DNA from: Acaryochloris marina MBIC11017
Lineage (GTDB): Bacteria; Cyanobacteriota; Cyanobacteriia; Thermosynechococcales; Thermosynechococcaceae
Assembly: GCF_000018105.1 (NCBI RefSeq)
Contig: NC_009925.1
Coordinates: 1,530,001 to 1,562,000, forward strand
Length of the DNA stretch: 32,000 bases
Direction: 5' to 3'
Below the pieces are notes generated by a model. That model had not been told where the DNA came from, searched no databases, and worked only from the letters and a program-made list of their open reading frames with translations. The position numbers were made by a program, and so were the translations under genes. Positions 19,187 to 32,000 of this stretch are shown one piece after another (position 1 is the stretch's first letter; the number at the start of each line of letters is the position of its first letter).

Positions 19187-19320
19187 TCACTCCTACAAAG
19201 GTTTGCTGAGTTCAAAGTAACAACGCTGACATCTCGTGACTGGTCTCAATAGTCAAAAGAATTGATGACTTTGGTCATGTATTATCTTTGGCACAATATT
19301 GCAGGATAGAGACAGCCTAA

Positions 19321-20520
19321 GTGCAGTTTCTACCCTGCAATATGCCTACCAGTTCTGATCCACCGATTCTGTCTCGTCGGACGATACAACGTATTGATTG
19401 GCTACTCCTGCTGATGAGCTTACTGTTGGGGTGGATCGGGGGGAGCTACACGTTATCAGCACAAATATCTCAGCAGATATTGTTCTTTCATGGCGTCTTC
19501 TTCCTTTTGAGCTGGATAATTCCCCTCAAAGGTCCGTATTGGCACAAATGGACCTTTGTGTGCTTAAACAGCCTTGTATTTACCGTTTTGGCTGGCCTCA
19601 GCTTAACTTTACCGCTGCAAATGTATTGGTTTATTGCCAAAACCTGCTTTATATTGGGCTGTCAAAACGCCATTAAAACGGTGGTTGTCTTGGGTTCAAC
19701 GTATTTAGTTGCTTCACATTGGAGTCGTCCCAGGCTGCTAGCAAGGGTTGCAGAGATTGGGATTGATCGGTGGCTTGATCCCAATTACATCTTTTTCAAT
19801 CAATTGGCCTTTTACGTGGGGGCAAGCAGCTTTACACTCCTCTTTGCCTTACTGGTCATCGCTGAGCAAAAAAGCCGCCTTAAAGCAGAAGCCTTAACCA
19901 AACAGGTAGAAACCTTAGCCGCAACCCTAGAGCGGACCCGAATTGCCCGCAATATCCATGATTCCCTTGGGCACTCACTCACCACATTAGATGTGCATCT
20001 GGAGTTAGCTCAACGTCTGTATCATCAAGATTCCATTCAAACAGAACAGTCTTTACAAACCGCTAAGCAACTGGCTCAACAATGTCTAACTGAGGTCCGT
20101 CGCTCCGTACAAACAATACGGGAAGAAACTTTGAATCTTAATGAGCAGATTGCAACCCTTACGAACTCGATTGATCCCAACCACTCCTTAACCATTCAGC
20201 TTGACCTTGACTTACCGCCTCTGCCATCACAGATCGGCCATCAGCTTTACTGCATCCTTCAAGAAGGATTGACCAATGTACAGAAACACGCGGAAGCATC
20301 AAACGTAATTCTTACTGGCAAGTACGACACGGGCAAGATAAGGATTGAGTTACATGATGATGGGATAGGATTTAACCGCCATAACCATCAGTCTGGGTAT
20401 GGTCATCGGGGTATGTACGAGCGCACTCAAATCCTAGGTGGAGTGTTTACCATTCAAAGTTATCCGGGTGAAGGAACCACCTTACAGATCGTCATTCCAT
20501 ATCCGTCAGAGTCATCATGA
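19321..20520 (+). CDS. membrane sensor histidine kinase, NarL-partner type (HisKA_3 + HATPase)
   Basis: 399 aa from GTG 19321 (an in-frame ATG at 19342 is an alternative start). Multi-TM N-terminal half. HisKA_3 H-box RIARNIHDSLGHSLT. ATPase motifs EGLTNVQKHA, DDGIGF, GYGHRGMYER, GEGTTL. Confidence 0.9.
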   Translation: MQFLPCNMPTSSDPPILSRRTIQRIDWLLLLMSLLLGWIGGSYTLSAQISQQILFFHGVFFLLSWIIPLKGPYWHKWTFVCLNSLVFTVLAGLSLTLPLQMYWFIAKTCFILGCQNAIKTVVVLGSTYLVASHWSRPRLLARVAEIGIDRWLDPNYIFFNQLAFYVGASSFTLLFALLVIAEQKSRLKAEALTKQVETLAATLERTRIARNIHDSLGHSLTTLDVHLELAQRLYHQDSIQTEQSLQTAKQLAQQCLTEVRRSVQTIREETLNLNEQIATLTNSIDPNHSLTIQLDLDLPPLPSQIGHQLYCILQEGLTNVQKHAEASNVILTGKYDTGKIRIELHDDGIGFNRHNHQSGYGHRGMYERTQILGGVFTIQSYPGEGTTLQIVIPYPSESS

Positions 20521-21164
20521 TTCGGCTACTGCTTGCAGATGATCAGGCTCTATTTCGCCAAGGGCTGGCCTCACTTTTAGAGCTAGAGGAAGATTTATCC
20601 GTTGTGGGGCAGGCACAAGATGGACGAGATGCCATCCTATTGACCCAAACCCTACAGCCTGATGTGATTCTTATGGATGTACGGATGCCAATCTGTGATG
20701 GTGTGGAGGCTACCCGAGAGATCCATCAACGGTTTCCTTGGATTCGTATTTTGGTCTTGACCACCTTTGATGAAGACGAATATATCTGGACATCATTGCA
20801 GGCAGGGGCTTTGGGTTATTTACTGAAGAGTACACCCGCTAGTCAGCTTGCAGCAGCAATACGGATGCTGCACGATGGCCACTTTCAACTCGGACCGACT
20901 ATTGCCCCAAAGGTGATTGCCCAATTGCGCCCCCCTCCTCTCAAAAATGAGCAAAACCACTTGGAACGGTTGAGTGACCGCGAACTGGATGTCCTTAACT
21001 TGATCGGCCAGGGCAAGAGTAATCGGGAAATCTCACAGATTTTGCATTTAACCGAAGGCACCGTTAAAAATTATGTGAGTCAGTTGTTAGGGAGTTTGGG
21101 GGTTCGTGATCGCACCCAAGCGGCCCTATGGGCACAGCAATATCTATCCCCACCTCAAACGTAA
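20517..21164 (+). CDS. NarL/LuxR-family response regulator (REC + LuxR HTH)
   Basis: 215 aa. IRLLLADDQALFRQG...DVILMDVRMPICDGVEAT...ILVLTTFDEDEY...GALGYLLK, then LSDRELDVLNLIGQGKSNREISQILHLTEGTVKNYVSQLL. A 4-nt ATGA overlap with the kinase gene. Confidence 0.95.
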   Translation: MIRLLLADDQALFRQGLASLLELEEDLSVVGQAQDGRDAILLTQTLQPDVILMDVRMPICDGVEATREIHQRFPWIRILVLTTFDEDEYIWTSLQAGALGYLLKSTPASQLAAAIRMLHDGHFQLGPTIAPKVIAQLRPPPLKNEQNHLERLSDRELDVLNLIGQGKSNREISQILHLTEGTVKNYVSQLLGSLGVRDRTQAALWAQQYLSPPQT

Positions 21165-21282
21165 ATGGCTGATGCCAAATAGAAGAAGTGACGAATGTCA
21201 CCTTTATCTATGACTTTTAGGAGCGGTAGAACCTATCAGCCAACCCCTAAGGTAATCAGGAGATGATCCACCGTAGGTTTAT

Positions 21283-21669
21283 ATGATGCTTCAGTTCATT
21301 CGTTGTGTTGGTTTTGGCTTACTCGTTACAACACTCAGTTGGGGGCAAGCTGCACAGGCAAGCACCTGTAACTTTACCCAATGGTCAGGGGGGATTGAGT
21401 TTGGCCATTGTCCCAATCCTGGATTGCAGATAGGTCGTTCAGCATTTACTGGAATTTCAAAGAGGGAGGAAGAGATTTTTAGAATTAGTATGATTCGTCG
21501 GTTTGATGGGGTTGTAGCTAAGTACAATGCAGCATTTCCTGCTGTTTATGCCCATCGGGAAAGACAACAGAGAGTATTGGCTAAGATTTCAAGTAATGAA
21601 GGGCCAGGTTTAATGAAATTGTCAGGGGCGGTTAGCCAAGTTGATCAAAATCGCCATATTAACCCCTAA
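21283..21669 (+). CDS. hypothetical exported protein
   Basis: 128 aa with a signal peptide (FGLLVTTLSWGQAAQAS). No recognisable family. Confidence 0.6.
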   Translation: MMLQFIRCVGFGLLVTTLSWGQAAQASTCNFTQWSGGIEFGHCPNPGLQIGRSAFTGISKREEEIFRISMIRRFDGVVAKYNAAFPAVYAHRERQQRVLAKISSNEGPGLMKLSGAVSQVDQNRHINP

Positions 21670-21780
21670 ACATTGTTGATAGGCGACAATTGCATAAACC
21701 GAATACATGACCGCCTGACAATTACGTAGCCTCTTTAAAAATCAGAATCTAGTTGTTGAATGTCAATATATAAAGGTAGA

Positions 21781-22290
21781 TCACTTAAATCCACTGTCCT
21801 GACCTAAACTCATGCGAGTACCTATCGTTTCAAAACCTTGCGATTGATAAAATTTTAAGGCTGATGAGTTGGAAGTGTACATATCAAACCAAATCCATTT
21901 CAGGTTTTCGACTTCTTGAGCAAACCGTTTCATGGTAGAAATCAGCTGACTACCGACTCCTTTTCTACGAAATTCCTTCACTACATAGATTTGGTGCAAA
22001 TAGATATTTTTTCTGGCATGGGAAAAGATCGTTTCTGCCCGTTCACAAACCTCAAAGTGGATATACCCCACCAGTTGGTCATCAGTCACTGCAACATAGA
22101 TAAATTCTTGCTCAACCCCTATTTTCTCTTCTAAATACTCCCTAGCATGATCCACCCGTAGGGGGCGATGGATATCTGGGTGTGATTGCACCGCTATTTG
22201 GCTGAGATCAATCATCAAATTGGCGACAGCACAAATATCAGGCTGCTCTATGGGTCGAATAATGGGGCCAACTACCGCTGTACTCTCCAC
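21781..22290 (-). CDS. GNAT family N-acetyltransferase
   Basis: 169 aa with acetyl-CoA motif A: IYVVKEFRRKGVGSQLISTMKRFAQE...ALKFYQSQGF. Confidence 0.85.
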   Translation of the reverse strand: MESTAVVGPIIRPIEQPDICAVANLMIDLSQIAVQSHPDIHRPLRVDHAREYLEEKIGVEQEFIYVAVTDDQLVGYIHFEVCERAETIFSHARKNIYLHQIYVVKEFRRKGVGSQLISTMKRFAQEVENLKWIWFDMYTSNSSALKFYQSQGFETIGTRMSLGQDSGFK

Positions 22291-22375
22291 GGTCCACTCA
22301 CCTATTTATTTTTATGTTCTATGGTATTTCCAACTTGAGAGATGGCAACCCCTCTCGATTGCCAATTCTCAAAAT

Positions 22376-23068
22376 CTATCCTTCATTCGTAGCTGTTTGC
22401 TCTGTAGGAAGTCGGCGAGATACAACGGCAAAAAAGGGATCGCTTCCCCCTAATCCCATCCAAGATAAGAGGGTCGATTGAGGCGTTTGATTCGATACCA
22501 CCTGGGGTTCACTCAAGCCTTCGACAGATCCCATATAGGATCGCACCAGTTGGACCCGCTGAGCATCCGTTCCGTCTCGCCAAGCCTGGATCGCTTTTTG
22601 ATAAAACATGCGGTTGGAGAAACTGACAATCACCACACCACCAGGCTTCAGCACTCGATGGATTTCGCTAAAAATGGCTTCAGGATATTGCAAATACTGG
22701 ACAGAAACGGCGATCAATACCGCATCAAAGGTCTGATCGGCTTGAGGAAGCTGCAGCTCTTGATTGAGATTTTGGACGAAACACTCATCAAAGCGAGGAT
22801 TCTTGGCCAGCTCTTCAGCATTTAGACCATGGCCCACCACCTGATCAAACTTGATATCCTCTGGCAAATGAGACACCCAGCTACTCATCAAATCTAAGAT
22901 GGTAAATCCTGGCTGGAGATGCTGCCGATACAGATCCGTGAGTTGTTGAATAAACCCATCATCAACATGGGTGACAAAACGCGGATAATCATAGAAAAAC
23001 TGATCATCGCCATTGTCTAGCTTGGTTCGTTGATGGGGTTGCAGCAACATAGTCAGGTCAAAATACAC
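22376..23068 (-). CDS. class I SAM-dependent methyltransferase
   Basis: 230 aa. Motif I-like ILDLMSSWVSHLP, FDAVLIAVSVQYL, LKPGGVVIVSFSNR (Methyltransf_11-like). Confidence 0.85.
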   Translation of the reverse strand: MYFDLTMLLQPHQRTKLDNGDDQFFYDYPRFVTHVDDGFIQQLTDLYRQHLQPGFTILDLMSSWVSHLPEDIKFDQVVGHGLNAEELAKNPRFDECFVQNLNQELQLPQADQTFDAVLIAVSVQYLQYPEAIFSEIHRVLKPGGVVIVSFSNRMFYQKAIQAWRDGTDAQRVQLVRSYMGSVEGLSEPQVVSNQTPQSTLLSWMGLGGSDPFFAVVSRRLPTEQTATNEG

Positions 23069-23225
23069 TCCAGAGATAGGCCCCAGTCTTCATCACAAAG
23101 ACTCAGTCAAAGCCCAAGGCTTACCTCAAAGTGTAAAAGAATATGATTCACAGGTGTGTTGCCCTCTATTGGTTAGGCGAGAACACCCCGACAAAGATAA
23201 GGAATCAAGCTCTAGCAGCAATAAG

Positions 23226-23837
23226 CTAGAGACGCTTACAGAGCAGTAGTCGTTTGGGAGAAGCAAACAGAATATTGGGCCAAGACGGTGGGCTGTCTAT
23301 GAGTTGATATCCCGCTTTCGCATAGAGCCGACGAGCCGGGGTATTGTCATCCATCACATGGAGATAAAGGCGGTGATGTCCCCACTGACGAACCATTTCT
23401 TCACAGGCAAATAAGAGCTGCTTGCCCACTCCCTGACAACGACATTGAGGTGCCACTGCCAGATTGGAGATATAGGGCACAGACGGAGCAAAGGGCATCC
23501 AAGGCGACAAGGATTTTAGAGACACCTCAACGGTACCCACCAGTTCCGACTCTACGGACGACTCCCGAGCAATTTGAGCACCAATCAAGCTCGTAAACGG
23601 CATCAGGCGGACGCTGTAGCGGGACTGCAGATCGTGAAAGATACCCATTTGCATAATGGGGTTAAACCAGGACTGCCAGCCTTCCTGAGGATAGAAACAC
23701 CGACAGAGGAGGGCCGCCACCTCAGACAAATCTTTTGGTTTTAAAGTACGCAGTCGAAATGAGGCATCCACTCGACTGATATATCGAGCACCGTCAATGG
23801 CGGAGTCTTTGGAACGAAAAATACCTAAATCTGCCAC
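23226..23837 (-). CDS. GNAT family N-acetyltransferase
   Basis: 203 aa. ISNLAVAPQCRCQGVGKQLLFACEEMVRQWGHHRLYLHVMDDNTPARRLYAKAGY (Q/RxxGxG/A motif A plus motif B). Confidence 0.85.
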   Translation of the reverse strand: MADLGIFRSKDSAIDGARYISRVDASFRLRTLKPKDLSEVAALLCRCFYPQEGWQSWFNPIMQMGIFHDLQSRYSVRLMPFTSLIGAQIARESSVESELVGTVEVSLKSLSPWMPFAPSVPYISNLAVAPQCRCQGVGKQLLFACEEMVRQWGHHRLYLHVMDDNTPARRLYAKAGYQLIDSPPSWPNILFASPKRLLLCKRL

Positions 23838-23951
23838 GAATCTCTATAGAAACTGCACGAAACAATCTGAGTCTTAAAGCAGGAATGCCAGCCATTATAA
23901 GGTGATCTCCCTAGGGAAAGCCTTACAATTTCTTTACGGAGTGTCCAAGCC

Positions 23952-24842
23952 TTAGGGAGAGGTACTTGCAGACGTTCCGTCATCGGTTTCAACGTCTAGT
24001 TCACTCAAGGCAGCCTGAATTTCAGGGGTCGCAAACACCACTTTAGTATCCGCAATCAACTTTTCGCCCCAGAGGTTCTCTTCGAGGAAGGCTACCTTGC
24101 CATAGCGTCCATCCAATTTCAGGGCAGACATAGCTAAAGACAGCCCTTCTTCTTTATCGCCTTCGACATAAGTCGCGACAGCAAGGGCCAACTTTGGTTC
24201 ACCGGATTTCTGATCAATCTCAATCGCCGCTTTCCACTGCTTAATAGCTCGGCTAACCTCACCCTTTTCGTATTGGACTAAGCCAATATTATTGATGGCG
24301 GGCCAGAATTTTTCGTTTTGATCTAAGGATTTCTCATACTGTTTGATGGCATCTTTCAATTTACCCATTTTGTAAAAGGTATTGCCTAAATCAAACAGGG
24401 CTTCTGGAACGTCCGGCTTAATTTTGAGGCCCATGGTCAACAGTTGGGCCGCTTGTTCATATTTCTCTTGGCCAAAGTAGGCAGCACCTAGACTGAAATG
24501 AACCCCTGCATTTTTGGCATTTAAGGTTCTGGATTTTTCTAGCGCAGAAATCCCTTTATCGACTTCTTTTTGGCTGAGGTATAACCCTCCCAACAAGGCC
24601 CAGGCATCTGCAGACTTAGGAGCGAGTTGGGTTGCCAATTTGACGCGAGCTAGAGCAGGTTCAACTTGCTGAAATTGGCTCAGGTAAACCGCTTCTTTGA
24701 ATAAGACCAGCCCCGTTTTCTCGAGTTCTTTGGAATCGAGTTTAAGGGTCCGAGGCACAACTGCCTGTCCTAAGGCAGGTTGGGCAACAGCACCAAGACC
24801 TACGGCTAGGAAAAGCGAAAGTAGAGTTGAACGTTGAAGCAC
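23952..24842 (-). CDS. exported tetratricopeptide-repeat (TPR) protein
   Basis: 296 aa. Signal peptide LLSLFLAVGLGAVAQPALGQA, then about 6 TPR units (e.g. ADAWALLGGLYLSQKEVDKGISALEKSRTLNAKN; PEALFDLGNTFYKMGKLKDAIKQYEKSLDQNEKF). Confidence 0.85.
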   Translation of the reverse strand: MLQRSTLLSLFLAVGLGAVAQPALGQAVVPRTLKLDSKELEKTGLVLFKEAVYLSQFQQVEPALARVKLATQLAPKSADAWALLGGLYLSQKEVDKGISALEKSRTLNAKNAGVHFSLGAAYFGQEKYEQAAQLLTMGLKIKPDVPEALFDLGNTFYKMGKLKDAIKQYEKSLDQNEKFWPAINNIGLVQYEKGEVSRAIKQWKAAIEIDQKSGEPKLALAVATYVEGDKEEGLSLAMSALKLDGRYGKVAFLEENLWGEKLIADTKVVFATPEIQAALSELDVETDDGTSASTSP

Positions 24843-25080
24843 AGCAGATGCCCAAATATAACGTATTCATAAGTTAGCTTAGCTCAGATTTTCAGCTCTT
24901 GACTGAAACCGTTACAGACTATTGATTGTGAAAAGGGAATCAGCCATTGCATAGGTCCCTTCCTATTCCAGATTCTTCACCCCAACAATTGACGTTTACC
25001 GTTATGATTCGGTTGTTAGAATTATTAAGTCTTGTACACATTCAATTGGCAACGAGGGTACCTTGGTGGATAGTCAAACG

Positions 25081-25242
25081 ATGCGCGATCGCATTGCCTT
25101 ATTGGAATCAAAACGTGGGTTATTGGTGCAGCTACTCGAGCAACCCGATTTAGGCACCCTCCGCATTGACGTCAATCAGGCCCTGGAGGAAATGGATGAC
25201 CTGATTGATGAATTCAGAAAAACCTTTCCTGCTAATGCCTAG
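25081..25242 (+). CDS. possible small helical protein (53 aa) upstream of selU
   Basis: ATG 25081 to TAG 25240-25242: MRDRIALLESKRGLLVQLLEQPDLGTLRIDVNQALEEMDDLIDEFRKTFPANA. It is below the track's length cut-off, lies 16 nt upstream of selU, and has amphipathic-helix character. There is no independent support. Confidence 0.35.
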   Translation: MRDRIALLESKRGLLVQLLEQPDLGTLRIDVNQALEEMDDLIDEFRKTFPANA

Positions 25243-25258
25243 AGACTGCTAGACCTGG

Positions 25259-26326
25259 ATGCCCCTCACCCCCAACATCACAGCCGATATTTGCCCACAA
25301 CTATATAGCGAAATTATCGATGTACGATCCCCCGCTGAATATGCGGAAGATCACCTCCCCGGTGCCATCAATTTGCCCGTACTCACGGATCAAGAACGAG
25401 CTGAGGTGGGGACGCTATATAAGCAAGTGTCGGCATTTGTGGCCCGCAAGAAGGGGGCGGCACTGGTCTCTCAAAATCTCTCTTATCACCTCAAGCACCA
25501 CTTTGCAGATCACCCCAAGGGGTATCACCCGTTAATTTACTGCTGGCGTGGGGGACAGCGATCCCAAAGTATGGCCCTGGTACTCACCCAGGTGGGATGG
25601 CGTACAACCCTTTTGAAAGGGGGATATAAGACCTATCGCACCTATGTCCGAGAACAGCTAGAACAGGTGCCGTATCACTTTTCGTATCGTGTATTGTGCG
25701 GACTCACGGGCACTGCCAAAACGGAGATTTTGCAGCGTTTGGCTCAAGCTCAGGTGCAGGTCCTGGATTTAGAAGGATTGGCCAACCATCGGGGCTCGTT
25801 ATTAGGAGCAGCAGAAACCTCTGCCCAACCCTCTCAAAAGCAATTTGAATCGGATTTACTGTCGGCCCTCCAAACCTTCGATACCGCCCACCCGGTTTGG
25901 ATCGAGGCAGAAAGCAATAAAATCGGTGAGCGCTTTGTCCCCAAGGCTCTCTGGGACCAAATGCAAGCTGCTCCTTGTGTCGAAGTCCAAGCCCCCATGA
26001 GCAGTCGAGTGGACTGGTTGGTGACCCACTACGAGCATTTCACCCATAATTCCGCTTTACTCAAAGACAAGCTCAATTTACTCCGACGCAGTTACAGCAA
26101 AGCCCAACTGCAGCACTGGCATAACCTCATCGACGAGCAACAGTGGCCAGCATTCGTTCAGTCTCTGTTGGAAGAGCATTATGATCCGGCCTATCGCCGA
26201 TCGATGAAGCGCCAATATACCAATATCCAGCAGCAACATCAGCTACCTGATTTATCAGCCACCAGTTTGCAACAGTTGGTGAACCAACTCGCTACAAACT
26301 GCAATCAGCCTGCTACGACCGTGTGA
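25259..26326 (+). CDS. selU: tRNA 2-selenouridine(34) synthase
   Basis: 355 aa. N-terminal rhodanese domain with IDVRSPAEYAEDHLPGAINLPVL.D.ERAEVGTLYKQ and active-site loop YCWRGGQRS. P-loop GLTGTAKT. LDLEGLANHRGSLLG. This is collinear with E. coli YbbB/SelU as I remember it. Confidence 0.92.
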   Translation: MPLTPNITADICPQLYSEIIDVRSPAEYAEDHLPGAINLPVLTDQERAEVGTLYKQVSAFVARKKGAALVSQNLSYHLKHHFADHPKGYHPLIYCWRGGQRSQSMALVLTQVGWRTTLLKGGYKTYRTYVREQLEQVPYHFSYRVLCGLTGTAKTEILQRLAQAQVQVLDLEGLANHRGSLLGAAETSAQPSQKQFESDLLSALQTFDTAHPVWIEAESNKIGERFVPKALWDQMQAAPCVEVQAPMSSRVDWLVTHYEHFTHNSALLKDKLNLLRRSYSKAQLQHWHNLIDEQQWPAFVQSLLEEHYDPAYRRSMKRQYTNIQQQHQLPDLSATSLQQLVNQLATNCNQPATTV

Positions 26327-26615
26327 GCAAGATCATCTGCTCTTGATGATTGAGATCAACGGTCCCCAGTAATGCACATCCTAGGATTGGACTAACACAT
26401 AACAAAACCAACGCCTCAACCTAGCGTGACCTAAAGAATAGAGGCATATGGGGGGTACCAATCAAAGCGAAACCCTTAGAGTTTCCCCTGATTTGGTTCA
26501 ACGCTGATTTACGTAAGGGACTCAATCCAACTGAATCCATTGGGTCGATGACCGTCTCAATTCCGAGAATCATCTGCTGAGTCCCGGGTTTTTATCCAGA
26601 TTATTTGAATCCATC

Positions 26616-27302
26616 ATGAATTATTCTGCGACCTTTCTCAGTTTGCTGAAAGACCGTCAATCCTTCCTGCAAGAAATTCACGATCGCAAACGGTTACACA
26701 GTAAAATTTCGGCCTTATTGCTCTGTAGTTTTTGCTGCTTTGCCATCTACGGCGGCATTGTGGGTTCCTTTCATAGCCCCATGCAGGCCCTGTCATCGGC
26801 GGTTAAGTTGCCTGCTCTCTATCTGATTACCCTGGTGGTTTGTTTGCCCGCCCTCTATATTTTTAATGCCCTCTTCGGCTCCCAGAAAACCCTGGCCCAG
26901 CATTTTACCTATGTCCTGAGTGCCGCTTCTGTGATCTCTATTCTGCTCTGCGGGTTTGCTCCCGTTACGCTCTTCTTTGTCATTACCATTTCTCCCATCA
27001 AAGACTACGCTTTCTACCAGCTTCTAAATGTGGTGATTTTTGCCCTGACAGGAGTGTTTGGGGTGACCTTCCTCTATCAGGCTATGCGGCCAGCCGATGA
27101 AGATAGCGCCAACTATAAGCTCCGACTGACAATCTTGAGATTGTGGTTAGGACTCTATGGCATCGTTGGTAGCCAGTTGGGATGGATTCTGCGACCCTTC
27201 TTCGGTTCTCCTGGCCAGTTCGAATGGTTTCGAGCCAGAGAAGGCAATTTTCTGACTGGGGTTTGGAATGCCCTAGCGAATCTTCTGGGCAGTGCTGGAT
27301 AG
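26616..27302 (+). CDS. multi-pass membrane protein of unknown function
   Basis: 228 aa with about 5 TM helices (ALLLCSFCCFAIYGGIVG; LPALYLITLVVCLPALYIF; VLSAASVISILLCGFAPVTLFFV; LLNVVIFALTGVFGVTFLY; LWLGLYGIVGSQLGWIL). Conserved-looking tail RPFFGSPGQFEWFR. Confidence 0.75.
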   Translation: MNYSATFLSLLKDRQSFLQEIHDRKRLHSKISALLLCSFCCFAIYGGIVGSFHSPMQALSSAVKLPALYLITLVVCLPALYIFNALFGSQKTLAQHFTYVLSAASVISILLCGFAPVTLFFVITISPIKDYAFYQLLNVVIFALTGVFGVTFLYQAMRPADEDSANYKLRLTILRLWLGLYGIVGSQLGWILRPFFGSPGQFEWFRAREGNFLTGVWNALANLLGSAG

Positions 27303-27304
27303 GG

Positions 27305-27994
27305 ATGATGACCCCAGCATTAGAAGATTTACGCATCTCTACCCTTGAAATTGAACGGCTCAGCGGCCTGGAAGTCAGTGATCATTTTCTCAATGGCTTC
27401 CTAATTGGTACCTATCGGTTGCCCTTAAATGCTCCTGGACGTCTCTTGGTGGTCGCCACAACGGAACCCTTAGTTCTGGGACTCTTGCTGATGTTTGCGA
27501 CCCCCATCGGCCTAGGACTGGCTCGTGGCTCAACGTCTGATCTGATGGTCTTGGGATGGATTGGTGCGATCGCACTGGGTCTCTGGATCGTTCGTCAATT
27601 CAGAATGTGGCTCAAAGCCCGGCATCTGCGTAGCTTGATGCGACTGCTCGATGAGGTGGACCATTATCATCAAGTTCTGCAAGCGGTCGATTTATTCGAG
27701 CAATTAGGCGGTGCCGAACAGACACAAACCACAATTTTAGAAGCCCTCAATAAAGCCCGCGAAAGTTTAATTGCGGGTCTCATGACGGAGAAAATTCTAC
27801 GGCAGAATCGGGGCCTGCTGTCTCGTCGCCAAGCCCTGTTGGACAATATCGAGCAAAATCTGATCACCCTGCAGGCGATAGAACTCCAGCATCAGGCCCA
27901 AACCTATAGCGATATTTTGAATCAGGCCGTCGATATCAGTATCCGGGTGCAAGATGAGGTCACCCAGCTATCCCATCTCGAATCAAGCCGTTGA
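27305..27994 (+). CDS. membrane protein with C-terminal coiled-coil, unknown function
   Basis: I call the start at ATGATG 27305, 2 nt after the upstream stop. The track's 27182 start would overlap the previous gene by 121 nt. Two TM helices (LLVVATTEPLVLGLLLMFATPIGLGL; LMVLGWIGAIALGLWIV) are followed by a roughly 120-aa helical region. Confidence 0.7.
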   Translation: MMTPALEDLRISTLEIERLSGLEVSDHFLNGFLIGTYRLPLNAPGRLLVVATTEPLVLGLLLMFATPIGLGLARGSTSDLMVLGWIGAIALGLWIVRQFRMWLKARHLRSLMRLLDEVDHYHQVLQAVDLFEQLGGAEQTQTTILEALNKARESLIAGLMTEKILRQNRGLLSRRQALLDNIEQNLITLQAIELQHQAQTYSDILNQAVDISIRVQDEVTQLSHLESSR

Positions 27995-28014
27995 CCCGCT
28001 AGGTGGTCAGAGTC

Positions 28015-28500
28015 TTAGTTCGCTGCCGATTGCAACCATTGATCTAAGCGGGGAAATTCATCCTCAATGGCCAGCTTGCTTCGTTTGCTCGTAGGGGATT
28101 CATCTGTGGAGAATAATCCATACTCAAGACCTGCCATCAGCAAATGTCGAAAGCTGCTTTTATCTGCTGGATTCATATCCTTGAGCAAGCTGAGCACTTG
28201 CTCTTCCCCCAGTTGATACGTCACTTTTGCCAAGACTTCGCCATGCCAATAACAGAAGGATGCTCCTCCACAGTCAAACTTGATCAGGGTCTGAAAGGCT
28301 TGGGAATCGCCATTGATAGATTGTTGAATCAAGTTTTTATAGGCGTTCTGTTCTTGGCCATCAAAAAAGTTAAACAGCTCTTGCCGAATAGGGATTTCTG
28401 AAACTTGTGGGGGACTGCTGGCGAGCCACATACTGGCTACTAACACTCCCAATGCATTCAGAACTTGTCCAAAAAACACAGTATAGACCTCTTGCTTCAA
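28015..28500 (-). CDS. small membrane-anchored/exported protein, paralogue A (CGGxSFCYWHGEVLAK family, unknown function)
   Basis: 161 aa with an N-terminal TM anchor (VLNALGVLVASMWLASS). The core is about 60% identical to the ORF at 28731-29138 (PIRQEL...FDCGGASFCYWHGEVLAKVTYQLGEEQ...AGLEYG). Confidence 0.75.
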   Translation of the reverse strand: MKQEVYTVFFGQVLNALGVLVASMWLASSPPQVSEIPIRQELFNFFDGQEQNAYKNLIQQSINGDSQAFQTLIKFDCGGASFCYWHGEVLAKVTYQLGEEQVLSLLKDMNPADKSSFRHLLMAGLEYGLFSTDESPTSKRSKLAIEDEFPRLDQWLQSAAN

Positions 28501-28730
28501 GGACCGTTATAGCAGTGGAATTCAAGATATACCACTGTAATTTCCTCAATAAATTTTGAGGAATTTCATGGCATTAGTCTCTTCATAATGTTGCGGAAGC
28601 CTTGCGACAACTTGCATCTACCACGCCGACAAGTGTATTCATCTACTTTCTGAATCACCACTTAGTTTGAGTCTATTAGCAACCATTGATTTAAGCGTGG
28701 GAATTCATGCTCAATTTCTAAATTACTAAG

Positions 28731-29138
28731 TTAGTTGGTTAATGTTCCATCTGTCGTAAATGATCCATATTCCAGGCCAGCTCTAAGCAAGTGGTGGAAT
28801 CGGCTCTTATCTTTGGGGGTCATATTTTCAACCAGTTCTAGTATTTTCTCCTCACCCATGTGATAGACGATTTTCGCTAATACTTCGCCATGCCAATAGC
28901 AAAAGGACACTCCTCCACAGTCAAAGTGGATCAACCGGATAAATGCCCTTGAGTTGCCGTCAATGGATCGGCGCATTAGATCTTTATAGTGATTCTGGTC
29001 TAGAAGATGGGAAGAGTCATACAGTTCTTGCCGAATTGGAATTCCCACCATTTCAGGAGGACCACAAGCCGTCAGCAATAAAGCAGTAACCACCACCCAC
29101 GCCAGTTTCGATGGCCCAATCAACATGATGTCTAACAC
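28731..29138 (-). CDS. small lipoprotein-like exported protein, paralogue B (same family), ends at an in-frame TAA relative to paralogue A
   Basis: 135 aa with a lipobox-like signal VVVTALLLTAC. Core PIRQEL...FDCGGVSFCYWHGEVLAKIVYHMGEEK...AGLEYG. The start lies 7 nt after the kinase stop codon, implying co-transcription. Confidence 0.75.
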   Translation of the reverse strand: MLDIMLIGPSKLAWVVVTALLLTACGPPEMVGIPIRQELYDSSHLLDQNHYKDLMRRSIDGNSRAFIRLIHFDCGGVSFCYWHGEVLAKIVYHMGEEKILELVENMTPKDKSRFHHLLRAGLEYGSFTTDGTLTN

Positions 29139-29145
29139 TAGGCGC

Positions 29146-31158
29146 TTACTGTAGCTTTTTTAGTAAATCGCGGGTGATTCGATACCGTTTAGTATCGCCT
29201 TGTTGCTGAAATAAGTCCTCTGCAATTTTCAGATCCTCAACTGCACCGGCAATATCATTCAGCTTACTTTTGGCACTACCCCGGTTGTAGTAGCTATCGG
29301 CAGGGCTATCGCTATTGCCCCAACCCGAATTAATCGTTAAGGCCTGAGTATAGTCTTCGATAGCAGCTTTATACCGTTTGAGAGCATGATGAGCCTTGCC
29401 ACGGGCGCTGTAGGCAAAGGAACTTTGAGGATCTAAGCGGATGGTTTCGGTGCAGTCTTTGATCGCCCCTTCTGCATCCTTTAACTTCAGCTTAGACTCC
29501 CCTCGGTTGCAATAGGCAAACGAATTCTTGGGATTAAGACGTATGGCTTCGGTGAAATCTTTAATGGCTTGACGGCTTTCGCCCAACTTGTAGCGGGCTA
29601 CCCCCCGACTATTGAATGCATTATCATTGTCGGGGTTGAGGCGAATAGTTTCGGAATAGTCCTCGATGGCCCCCGCATAGTTGGTCAAAGCCGCTTTAGA
29701 AACCCCTCGCAGTAGATAGGCAGGCTCATATTGGGGATTGAGTCGAATAGCTTGGCTAAAGTCTTCAATGGCAGCTCGATGTTCCTTAAGGGCAGATTTG
29801 ACATTGCCGCGATTGTAAAAGGCCAAGGCAAACTGAGGATCGGACTGAATCGCTTGATTATAGTCTTGGATAGCCCCCTCAAAGTCTTTGCGAGCAAATT
29901 TGACATTGCCCCGACCATTGAAAGCATAAACATAGTCCGGGTCGTGCTTTAAGGCTTCGTCATAGTCTATCAGGGCCTCTGGATATTCTTCTAAAGCGTA
30001 CCTGGCATTCCCTCGCCCCAAATAGGCTTGGGCATTGTCTGGACTCAGACGAATCGCTTCGGAATAATCTGCGATCGCATCTTCGTAATTCCGCCGATTA
30101 TACTTGGCATCTCCCCGACGAATAAAGGCTGTGGCGCTTTCTCCCGAGGTTTCAGAGGACGACATGCGCGTGGCAATCATATAGGTGATACCGGACAAAC
30201 TGCCAAGGGTTAAGAATGCGATCGCTGTGCCGATCCAAATCTTCCGGGAGGCCCCTATCTGATTGAGCCAAGAAGACGGGCTTGGAGGATTATGGGTTAA
30301 GTCAGCCAAAACCTGCTGAGCGGACTGATACCGTTGTGCCGGATCAAGTGAAAGCAACTGGGTCAGGATTGCTTGTAGTTCAGGGGTAGTCCGATCCACA
30401 TGAGACTGCCAATTCTCGATCCAGGACTGACCTTGGGTTTGTGCTAGCTCTGAAGGAGAAATACCGCTTAGGAGGTGAAAGCAAGTAGCCCCAAGTCCAA
30501 ACAAATCACTGACAGGGCTAGCCTGTCCTTGTAGTTGCTCAGGAGGCCGATAGCCCAGGGAGCGGCTGCTAGTAGGCCGTTGCGAAGTTTGATTTTCATT
30601 AAGGAACTGAGCAATGCCAAAGTCAATCAGAATGTAGTGCCCCTGGGTATCTTGAAGAATATTTTCTGGCTTGAGATCTCGATGCACCACCCCTTGGTTA
30701 TGCACCACCTGCAACACTGGCAATAAATCCGAGAGAAAATTGCGAACTTGAGGCTCAGTGAACGTCCCTTGCTGGAGCTGATCGAGTAGGGTTTTCCCTT
30801 CAATCAACTGGTGCACCAGATAGAGATACTCCCCTTCTTGGAAATAGGCTAATAAGTCCGGGAGTTGGGAATGATGGCCCAAGGCTTGGAGCTGTTTAGC
30901 TTCTTCTCGAAAAAGTTGAACGGCATTGGGACTAGCCCCAAATGTTTTCAGGGCTAACTGCTTAACAATGCATGGGGTATTGAGCTGATCAACATCCTCT
31001 GCCAGATAGGTCTTCCCCCAGCGTCCAGCTCCAAGGGGTTTGATGATGTTGTAGTGTTTGTGGAGAAATGGGGCGAGGGCCGTGCCACATTGCTGACAAT
31101 ACTTGTGAGTGTCAGGGTTTAGCGGTTTGGTACACTCAGGGTTCAGACAACATGTCAT
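29146..31158 (-). CDS. Ser/Thr protein kinase with N-terminal 4-Cys zinc-ribbon prefix, one TM helix and a C-terminal TPR array
   Basis: 670 aa. CCLNPEC...YCQQCG 4-Cys prefix. Kinase motifs LGAGRWGKTY, CIVKQL, VHRDLKPENIL, IDFGIAQ, GYRPPEQ. TM IWIGTAIAFLTLGSLSGITYMIAT. About nine 34-aa TPR units follow (e.g. AQAYLGRGNARYALEEYPEALIDYDEALKHDPDY). Confidence 0.92.
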   Translation of the reverse strand: MTCCLNPECTKPLNPDTHKYCQQCGTALAPFLHKHYNIIKPLGAGRWGKTYLAEDVDQLNTPCIVKQLALKTFGASPNAVQLFREEAKQLQALGHHSQLPDLLAYFQEGEYLYLVHQLIEGKTLLDQLQQGTFTEPQVRNFLSDLLPVLQVVHNQGVVHRDLKPENILQDTQGHYILIDFGIAQFLNENQTSQRPTSSRSLGYRPPEQLQGQASPVSDLFGLGATCFHLLSGISPSELAQTQGQSWIENWQSHVDRTTPELQAILTQLLSLDPAQRYQSAQQVLADLTHNPPSPSSWLNQIGASRKIWIGTAIAFLTLGSLSGITYMIATRMSSSETSGESATAFIRRGDAKYNRRNYEDAIADYSEAIRLSPDNAQAYLGRGNARYALEEYPEALIDYDEALKHDPDYVYAFNGRGNVKFARKDFEGAIQDYNQAIQSDPQFALAFYNRGNVKSALKEHRAAIEDFSQAIRLNPQYEPAYLLRGVSKAALTNYAGAIEDYSETIRLNPDNDNAFNSRGVARYKLGESRQAIKDFTEAIRLNPKNSFAYCNRGESKLKLKDAEGAIKDCTETIRLDPQSSFAYSARGKAHHALKRYKAAIEDYTQALTINSGWGNSDSPADSYYNRGSAKSKLNDIAGAVEDLKIAEDLFQQQGDTKRYRITRDLLKKLQ

Positions 31159-31370
31159 AAAGCTGCAATCTTTCGGGCTTCACAGGCCACAAGCTGTTGT
31201 CAAAGCATACTTAGTATCGGATAAAGACCTGGCTGAGAGCAAACTCAATTCTTCAAGAAGTGAAAAATCCCAGCTCTCTCATCGGGCTTGTTGAAAGAGC
31301 TCAGTCCAGGGAGCAGTCAAACACAGAATACGGAGATATATCTCCGACGATACATCCATCATTGCGGTAG

Positions 31371-32000
31371 CATCAGAAGACAACAGCTTCTCCAGGAACC
31401 AAAGGAGACAAACCATTCACACTATCCATCATTACCGCCACCCATAACCGAGCAAAGATCCTCCGGTATAACGTTTTAGCCAGTCTGCTCCAGCAATCTA
31501 GGCTGGACTTTGAATGGATTGTTATCAACGATGGCAGAGATAAAGCCACCCGACACCTGATTCAATCCACCTCATTACCCTTTCCTCATCAATACCTAGA
31601 AATCGATCATCCCGTAGAAGAGTTTGGTCTCTGTATCGCTCGCAACCTAGGGATTGAAGCTGCTTCTAGCAACTATGTCTGCTATCTCGACGATGACAAT
31701 AGCTTTCGTCCGGCTTTTGTAGCAACCATCCTTAATTGGATTGAGCAGTATCCCCATAGTCGATTTATCTTGCCTCAGCAATGGCGTCGCAGAGATGTGA
31801 TCAAGGAAGGGAAAATGATCAAACAGGGCAAACCCTTTATATCTCCCAGTGCTGACACAACCCTTGATGATCTGGTCTGTCAGCAAGCCCTCTTTGACAG
31901 CAACGGCTTTGTCCATCGTCGACTCAATTCACTGGGCTGGAATCCCCAGTACAGAGTTTTCTGCGATTATGAATTCTTTCTTCAATGTTTAAGTCAATGC
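31371..32000 (+). CDS. family 2 glycosyltransferase (partial; runs off the right edge; start codon unresolved)
   Basis: The frame is open from 31371 (after TAG 31368-31370) to the window end. It encodes FTLSIITATHNRAKILRYNVLASLLQQSRLDFEWIVINDGRD...GLCIARNLGIEAASSNYVCYLDDDNSF, which carries the GT2 N-terminal beta-strand/NR motif, a D-x-D-type DDD motif and NxG. There is no ATG, GTG or TTG between 31371 and the conserved SIITATHNR block. Confidence 0.7.

Follow-up and report, generated by a model that had tools for sequence, protein, structure and literature searches.

The locus and its features

The window analysed here, a 32,000-nucleotide stretch of the chromosome of Acaryochloris marina MBIC11017, carries on its minus strand a gene for a Ser/Thr protein kinase and, directly downstream of it, two small homologous genes that are referred to as paralogues B and A. 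The minus-strand open reading frame of B ends at a TAA at 28733-28731, behind which the frame continues to a further TAA. The relevant features are the following:

29146..31158, minus strand: Ser/Thr protein kinase with TPR repeats, directly upstream of B
28731..29126, minus strand: truncated ORF of paralogue B, 131 aa from the ATG at 29126, or 135 aa if the GTG at 29138 is the start
28731..28733, minus strand: premature TAA of B at codon 132, formerly CAA (Gln), with a C>T transition at 28733
28725..28733, minus strand: cluster of three lineage-specific C>T changes, at positions 28733, 28729 and 28725
28665..28730, minus strand: post-stop segment (tail) of B, 22 in-frame codons encoding LSNLEIEHEFPRLNQWLLIDSN
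28662..28664, minus strand: ancestral stop of B, TAA, at the same alignment position as the stops of A and of the orthologues
28015..28479, minus strand: intact paralogue A, 154 aa from the GTG at 28479, which is the start called in orthologous loci

For A, the longest ORF begins further upstream, at a TTG at 28500 (28500..28015, minus strand). The N-terminus of B reads as a probable signal sequence with a lipobox-like L-T-A-C motif, and identical copies of the 131/135-aa product of B are present in NCBI and Logan records.

On the plus strand, a gene at 25259-26326, 2.4 kb from the stop in B, encodes a protein with rhodanese and AAA_SelU domains, of the tRNA 2-selenouridine synthase type. This gene implies selenium use by the organism and has no bearing on a UAA codon. 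At 27182-27994 (plus strand), the longest ORF has 270 aa and overlaps the preceding gene by 121 nt, while orthologous loci call a product of 228 aa, which corresponds to a start at 27308. This ORF and its neighbour at 26616-27302, likewise of 228 aa, were considered as a second tandem duplicate, a possibility that was rejected as the two sequences are unrelated.

The post-stop segment of B compared with paralogue A

A sequence-only reading of this DNA had proposed that an in-frame TAA truncates B and that the codons beyond it have stayed in frame and conserved up to a final stop shared with A, and this description is borne out by the coordinates, the translation and the alignment of A with B. 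Its title gave the tail a length of 21 codons, which has to be corrected to 22, while the in-frame run to the TAA at 28664-28662 stands. In a global alignment, the mature region and everything after it, up to the shared stop, align gap-free between A and B; 13 of the 22 tail residues are identical to the C-terminus of A, the final stop falls at the same position, and the internal TAA of B lies opposite an AAA codon of A, all as had been described. The tail on its own matches A with E = 2e-7 (BLASTP), and its homology to paralogue A is real. An open run of 22 codons would be unremarkable when taken alone (P about 0.31 at the local base composition). Peptides encoded by the tail include LSNLEIEHEFPR, LNQWLLIDSN and EIEHEFPR. 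Separate translation of the tail was considered as well and rejected, as the first post-stop codons contain no in-frame ATG, GTG or TTG start.

The stop codon in independent assemblies

A single base separates the stop allele from the intact allele, and a sequencing or assembly error, with a sense codon in the true sequence and an intact gene, had accordingly been one of the three readings offered for the conserved tail. The exact truncated product was found on 11 Logan contigs, with runs SRR29694079, SRR29694090, DRR374621 and DRR374622 among their sources, so that two projects and no fewer than four individual sequencing runs are represented. It was also found on an NCBI chromosome of 6,503,724 bp and on AP026075.1, a complete chromosome of 6,415,507 bp. 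The latter is the chromosome of Acaryochloris marina MBIC10699, which has an ANI of 98.0 to the strain of the window (PMC9324425).

Across B and its tail (477 nt) the window and AP026075.1 are identical, and AP026075.1 is likewise 100% identical to the contig from DRR374621. In the flanks of the locus, AP026075.1 and the window diverge by 0.8-1.5%, and the two sequences therefore come from different strains. The same TAA and the same tail are thus present in two complete chromosomes, belonging to two strains that differ elsewhere in the locus, and in the Logan assemblies, and the TAA is accompanied by two more lineage-specific changes in the next two codons. These observations refute the error reading, the probability of which we consider close to nil.

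Ancestral codon and origin of the stop

Orthologues were searched for at the protein level, using B with its stop replaced, and all orthologue data derive from such protein-based look-ups. The search returned full-length orthologues of 154 aa at 92% and 83% identity (P0001 and P0002, respectively) and a third 154-aa allele (P0017) within the same 90% cluster. Contigs L001/L002, L003 and L009 share the gene order of the window, in which the TPR Ser/Thr kinase is followed by B, A, two opposite-strand genes for 228-aa proteins and a SelU-like gene. The four intact orthologous B alleles on these contigs (L001, L002, L009 and L003) have 84-95% nucleotide identity and encode 154-aa proteins that stop at the same site as the ancestral stop of B.

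Codon 132 is CAA in every one of these four alleles and the TAA is confined to the lineage of the window; when compared codon by codon, the intact alleles read CAA CCT AGC and the window reads TAA CTT AGT. The presence of CAA in all four intact alleles indicates that the stop is derived and that a C>T transition in a Gln codon gave rise to it. The alignment with A had earlier been taken to suggest a single A-to-T change from an AAA (Lys) codon, a path that the orthologues do not bear out, as theirs leads from CAA to TAA. Among the relatives, the residue aligned with the stop codon is Gln, Lys or Glu and is located in a variable linker.

Together with two other C>T changes specific to the lineage, the nonsense change forms a series with an exact spacing of 4 nt that converts CAACCTAGC into TAACTTAGT. 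The chance that three of nine substitutions fall inside 9 nt is 0.057, and the triplet could represent one multi-nucleotide mutational event. Conversion from A, considered as a possible origin of the TAACTTAGT cluster, was rejected, as A has AAACGAAGC at that site. Exact-pattern DNA scans with either allele gave no match in the GTDB species-representative genomes or in the JGI metagenomes.

The protein family and its conserved C-terminus

Scans of A and B against Pfam and NCBIfam assigned them to no family, and neither did Pfam scans of 10 longer distant relatives. A profile search against 1.84 billion representatives identified 286 related clusters, whose proteins are about 140-160 aa long and start with an N-terminal signal sequence; in B and in many of the relatives this sequence contains a lipobox-like L-T-[AG]-C. 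The conserved blocks occur in a common order, with an invariant C-x5-CYWHGEVLAK followed by AGLEYG-x-F, a variable linker and a C-terminal motif, L-x-IE-x-EFP-x-L-x3-L. The last of these is found family-wide and is encoded in B by the post-stop segment, and of the 40 positions that are invariant or nearly so across the family, 8 fall within the tail.

The tail was surveyed in the 146 family representatives that include the N-terminal part of the protein. The alignment extends through the tail motif in 110 of them, another 28 have at least 12 further residues past the end of the alignment, and the remaining 8, which are shorter, are either obvious fragments or have an [FY]P tail. No complete member that ends at the linker or lacks the tail was found among the 146. 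An AlphaFold2 model of an intact orthologue is all-helical with a mean pLDDT of 81, reaching around 90-95 in the core and 62 in the linker. In this model the tail forms short helices, and residues 141-150 have a mean pLDDT of 94. A Foldseek comparison of the model with the PDB gave no meaningful match (best E-value 2.6). Based on the family-wide occurrence of the tail and its confident modelling, the stop removes a conserved, confidently modelled terminal element, the stop site itself being situated in the variable linker just ahead of the conserved C-terminal helix.

In all seven distinct related loci, the family gene is located directly downstream of a TPR Ser/Thr kinase, which suggests that the two are functionally linked.

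History of the duplicates and age of the stop

In three more distant relatives, namely the MAG of an Acaryochloris sp. (L008) and Logan contigs L011 and L012, the kinase is followed by a single A-type copy and B is missing; neighbour joining places the B clade as sister to that of A. B is thus an extra, less constrained copy that is confined to the Acaryochloris marina clade. Sequences are available for roughly 37 strains of A. marina (PMC8949462). Evolution is faster in B than in the genes beside it, dN/dS being 0.19-0.45 in B, 0.04-0.08 in A and about 0.06 in the kinase, and the low values for A indicate that this paralogue is under strong purifying selection. On the branch of the window, B has acquired 6 nonsynonymous and 2 synonymous substitutions as against 3:3 on each of two sister branches, a difference that is suggestive of relaxed constraint on B and is not significant. 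The B allele of L001 (5001-5465), which is otherwise intact, has Leu in place of Pro at codon 143 in the nearly invariant EFP of the tail motif, and this adds to the evidence for loose constraint on B across the clade.

Divergence at the locus is distributed as a mosaic. Paralogue A has 100% nucleotide identity between the window and L001 (5677-6141), while 120 of 2013 nt differ in the kinase gene and 23 of 465 nt in B, a sign of recombination breakpoints inside the locus. Between the window and MBIC10699, a 5.2-kb block that comprises the kinase, B, A and the two genes for 228-aa proteins (window 26750-32000) contains no differences at all. The adjoining intergenic region, 26250-26750, shows 84 mismatches or indels relative to MBIC10699 (L005/L013), and the next 7 kb (19239-26289) diverge by 0.8%, suggesting a recent recombination or sweep of the 5.2-kb block.

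Substitutions on the lineage of the window were polarised with L001, L009 and L003, which yielded 9 unambiguous and at most 12 substitutions in the 465 nt of B. Two or three of these affect the tail, namely P133L, a synonymous change at S134 and possibly a synonymous change at L150. In a simulation, the tail stays free of stops after one, two or three random substitutions with P = 0.94, 0.88 and 0.82, respectively. With so short a stop-carrying branch, a tail that is still open and conserved is the expected outcome. The view that the nonsense change is very recent, another of the three original readings, is therefore supported by a stop that is derived relative to four intact alleles and by the small number of substitutions on its lineage. 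Between the stop-carrying strains, there are zero differences across the kinase, B and A genes. The ratio of 1 nonsynonymous to 2 synonymous changes in the tail leans weakly towards constraint (P about 0.1, a binomial estimate from site counts), but these 2-3 changes may be older than the stop.

Truncation, selection or read-through

Taken together, it is highly probable that a recent CAA to TAA nonsense mutation truncates B, that the 22 post-stop codons persist as an untranslated relic and that the locus presents the early loss of a redundant duplicate. The nonsense allele is fixed in the MBIC11017/MBIC10699 lineage of A. marina. In mechanistic terms, the C>T change at 28733 turned the Gln codon into TAA, and translation of B would end at 131 aa. 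The 22 post-stop codons would then be an untranslated remnant that still looks like coding sequence since there has been too little time for decay, and the truncation would be a first step towards loss, or at least functional impairment, of the redundant duplicate. The truncated product is presumably impaired, with A likely compensating for it. As the core of 131 codons is free of any further disabling mutation and carries an ordinary CDS annotation, the truncated protein may continue to be produced and might be partly functional.

Perhaps the truncation is instead tolerated or even adaptive, the 131-aa isoform working without the C-terminal helix and being kept by selection. Such an isoform would fit the otherwise intact core ORF of B and the position of the stop in a poorly conserved, low-confidence linker (pLDDT 62) outside the helix, and the sharing of the stop allele by two strains within the difference-free 5.2-kb block, next to sequence that differs by at least 0.8%, could reflect a recent sweep or recombinational transfer. 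However, the identical block also spans the kinase and A, so that nothing in it is specific to B, and the 6:2 ratio on the branch of the window is near the neutral expectation. The family survey, with its lack of any tail-less complete member, and the invariant residues in a confidently modelled tail also count against a protein that can dispense with this element, and selection for the short form appears improbable. Programmed or tolerated read-through of the TAA, by which the 154-aa protein would still be made and its tail kept under purifying selection, completes the set of readings originally proposed. It draws on the tail being intact, in frame and running to the ancestral stop, on the excess of synonymous over nonsynonymous changes in it, and on the C directly 3' of the stop, a nucleotide not seen after any of the 10 natural TAA stops of the window. 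A C in this position is a comparatively weak termination context in E. coli.

Recency alone, though, explains the intact tail, and the stop-carrying strains, being identical in the block, give no sign of selection on the post-stop codons. Conservation of the stop across orthologues is a hallmark of programmed read-through, whereas at this position each of the four intact orthologous alleles encodes Gln. Both release factors recognise UAA, which of the bacterial stops leaks least, and in the window TAA is the commonest normal stop, found at the end of 10 of the 23 long ORFs, with the kinase, A and the original terminus of B all among them. The RNA around and after the stop is no more stably folded than shuffled sequence (z = -0.86), and no tRNA genes were found within the window. 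Given a TAA that serves as a normal stop here, replaces a sense codon of the orthologues and has no stimulatory structure, read-through with selection on the tail is both unsupported and unneeded, and we regard it as very unlikely. Slightly less credence still is due to read-through of the UAA at a physiologically meaningful level, which would give mostly the 131-aa, tail-less putative lipoprotein and a minor full-length form; if true, this would be a cyanobacterial gene in which UAA read-through has newly arisen and is seen at its very beginning.

Comparison with known systems and significance

Among known systems, B resembles incipient pseudogenes, i.e. bacterial duplicates truncated by a nonsense mutation, in having a single derived stop in an otherwise intact ORF, intact orthologues in sister strains, an adjoining intact and more conserved paralogue, a raised dN/dS in the affected copy and a downstream remnant that is still recognisable. 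It differs from the typical case in that the truncation costs the protein no more than its final 15% and has been followed by no other lesion, and loss of function is putative. With programmed read-through, such as that of the UGA in the coat gene of phage Qbeta that yields A1, it shares an in-frame extension that runs from the first stop to a second one. The cases known from bacteria and phages rely on a leaky UGA (or UAG) that is conserved among relatives, whereas B has a UAA that none of the orthologues shares and that lacks any stimulatory element. Recoded stops, i.e. the UGA for selenocysteine with its SECIS element and the UAG for pyrrolysine, likewise offer an in-frame stop within a conserved frame, and the nearby SelU gene (25259-26326) adds a further likeness to selenocysteine recoding. 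In B, however, the codon is UAA, the relatives have Gln, Lys or Glu in a variable linker rather than Cys or a catalytic site, and no standout hairpin lies downstream.

The feature is real but ordinary, and it matters little beyond annotation. For annotation, the 131/135-aa ORF in genomes of the MBIC11017 type and in MBIC10699 is to be read as an allele in which the C-terminus of a 154-aa protein is cut off. Acaryochloris is a genus known for genome expansion, and B shows clearly, on a small scale, what becomes of a tandem duplicate early on. The family itself, consisting of small proteins predicted to be secreted or lipoproteins, may merit more attention than the stop codon.
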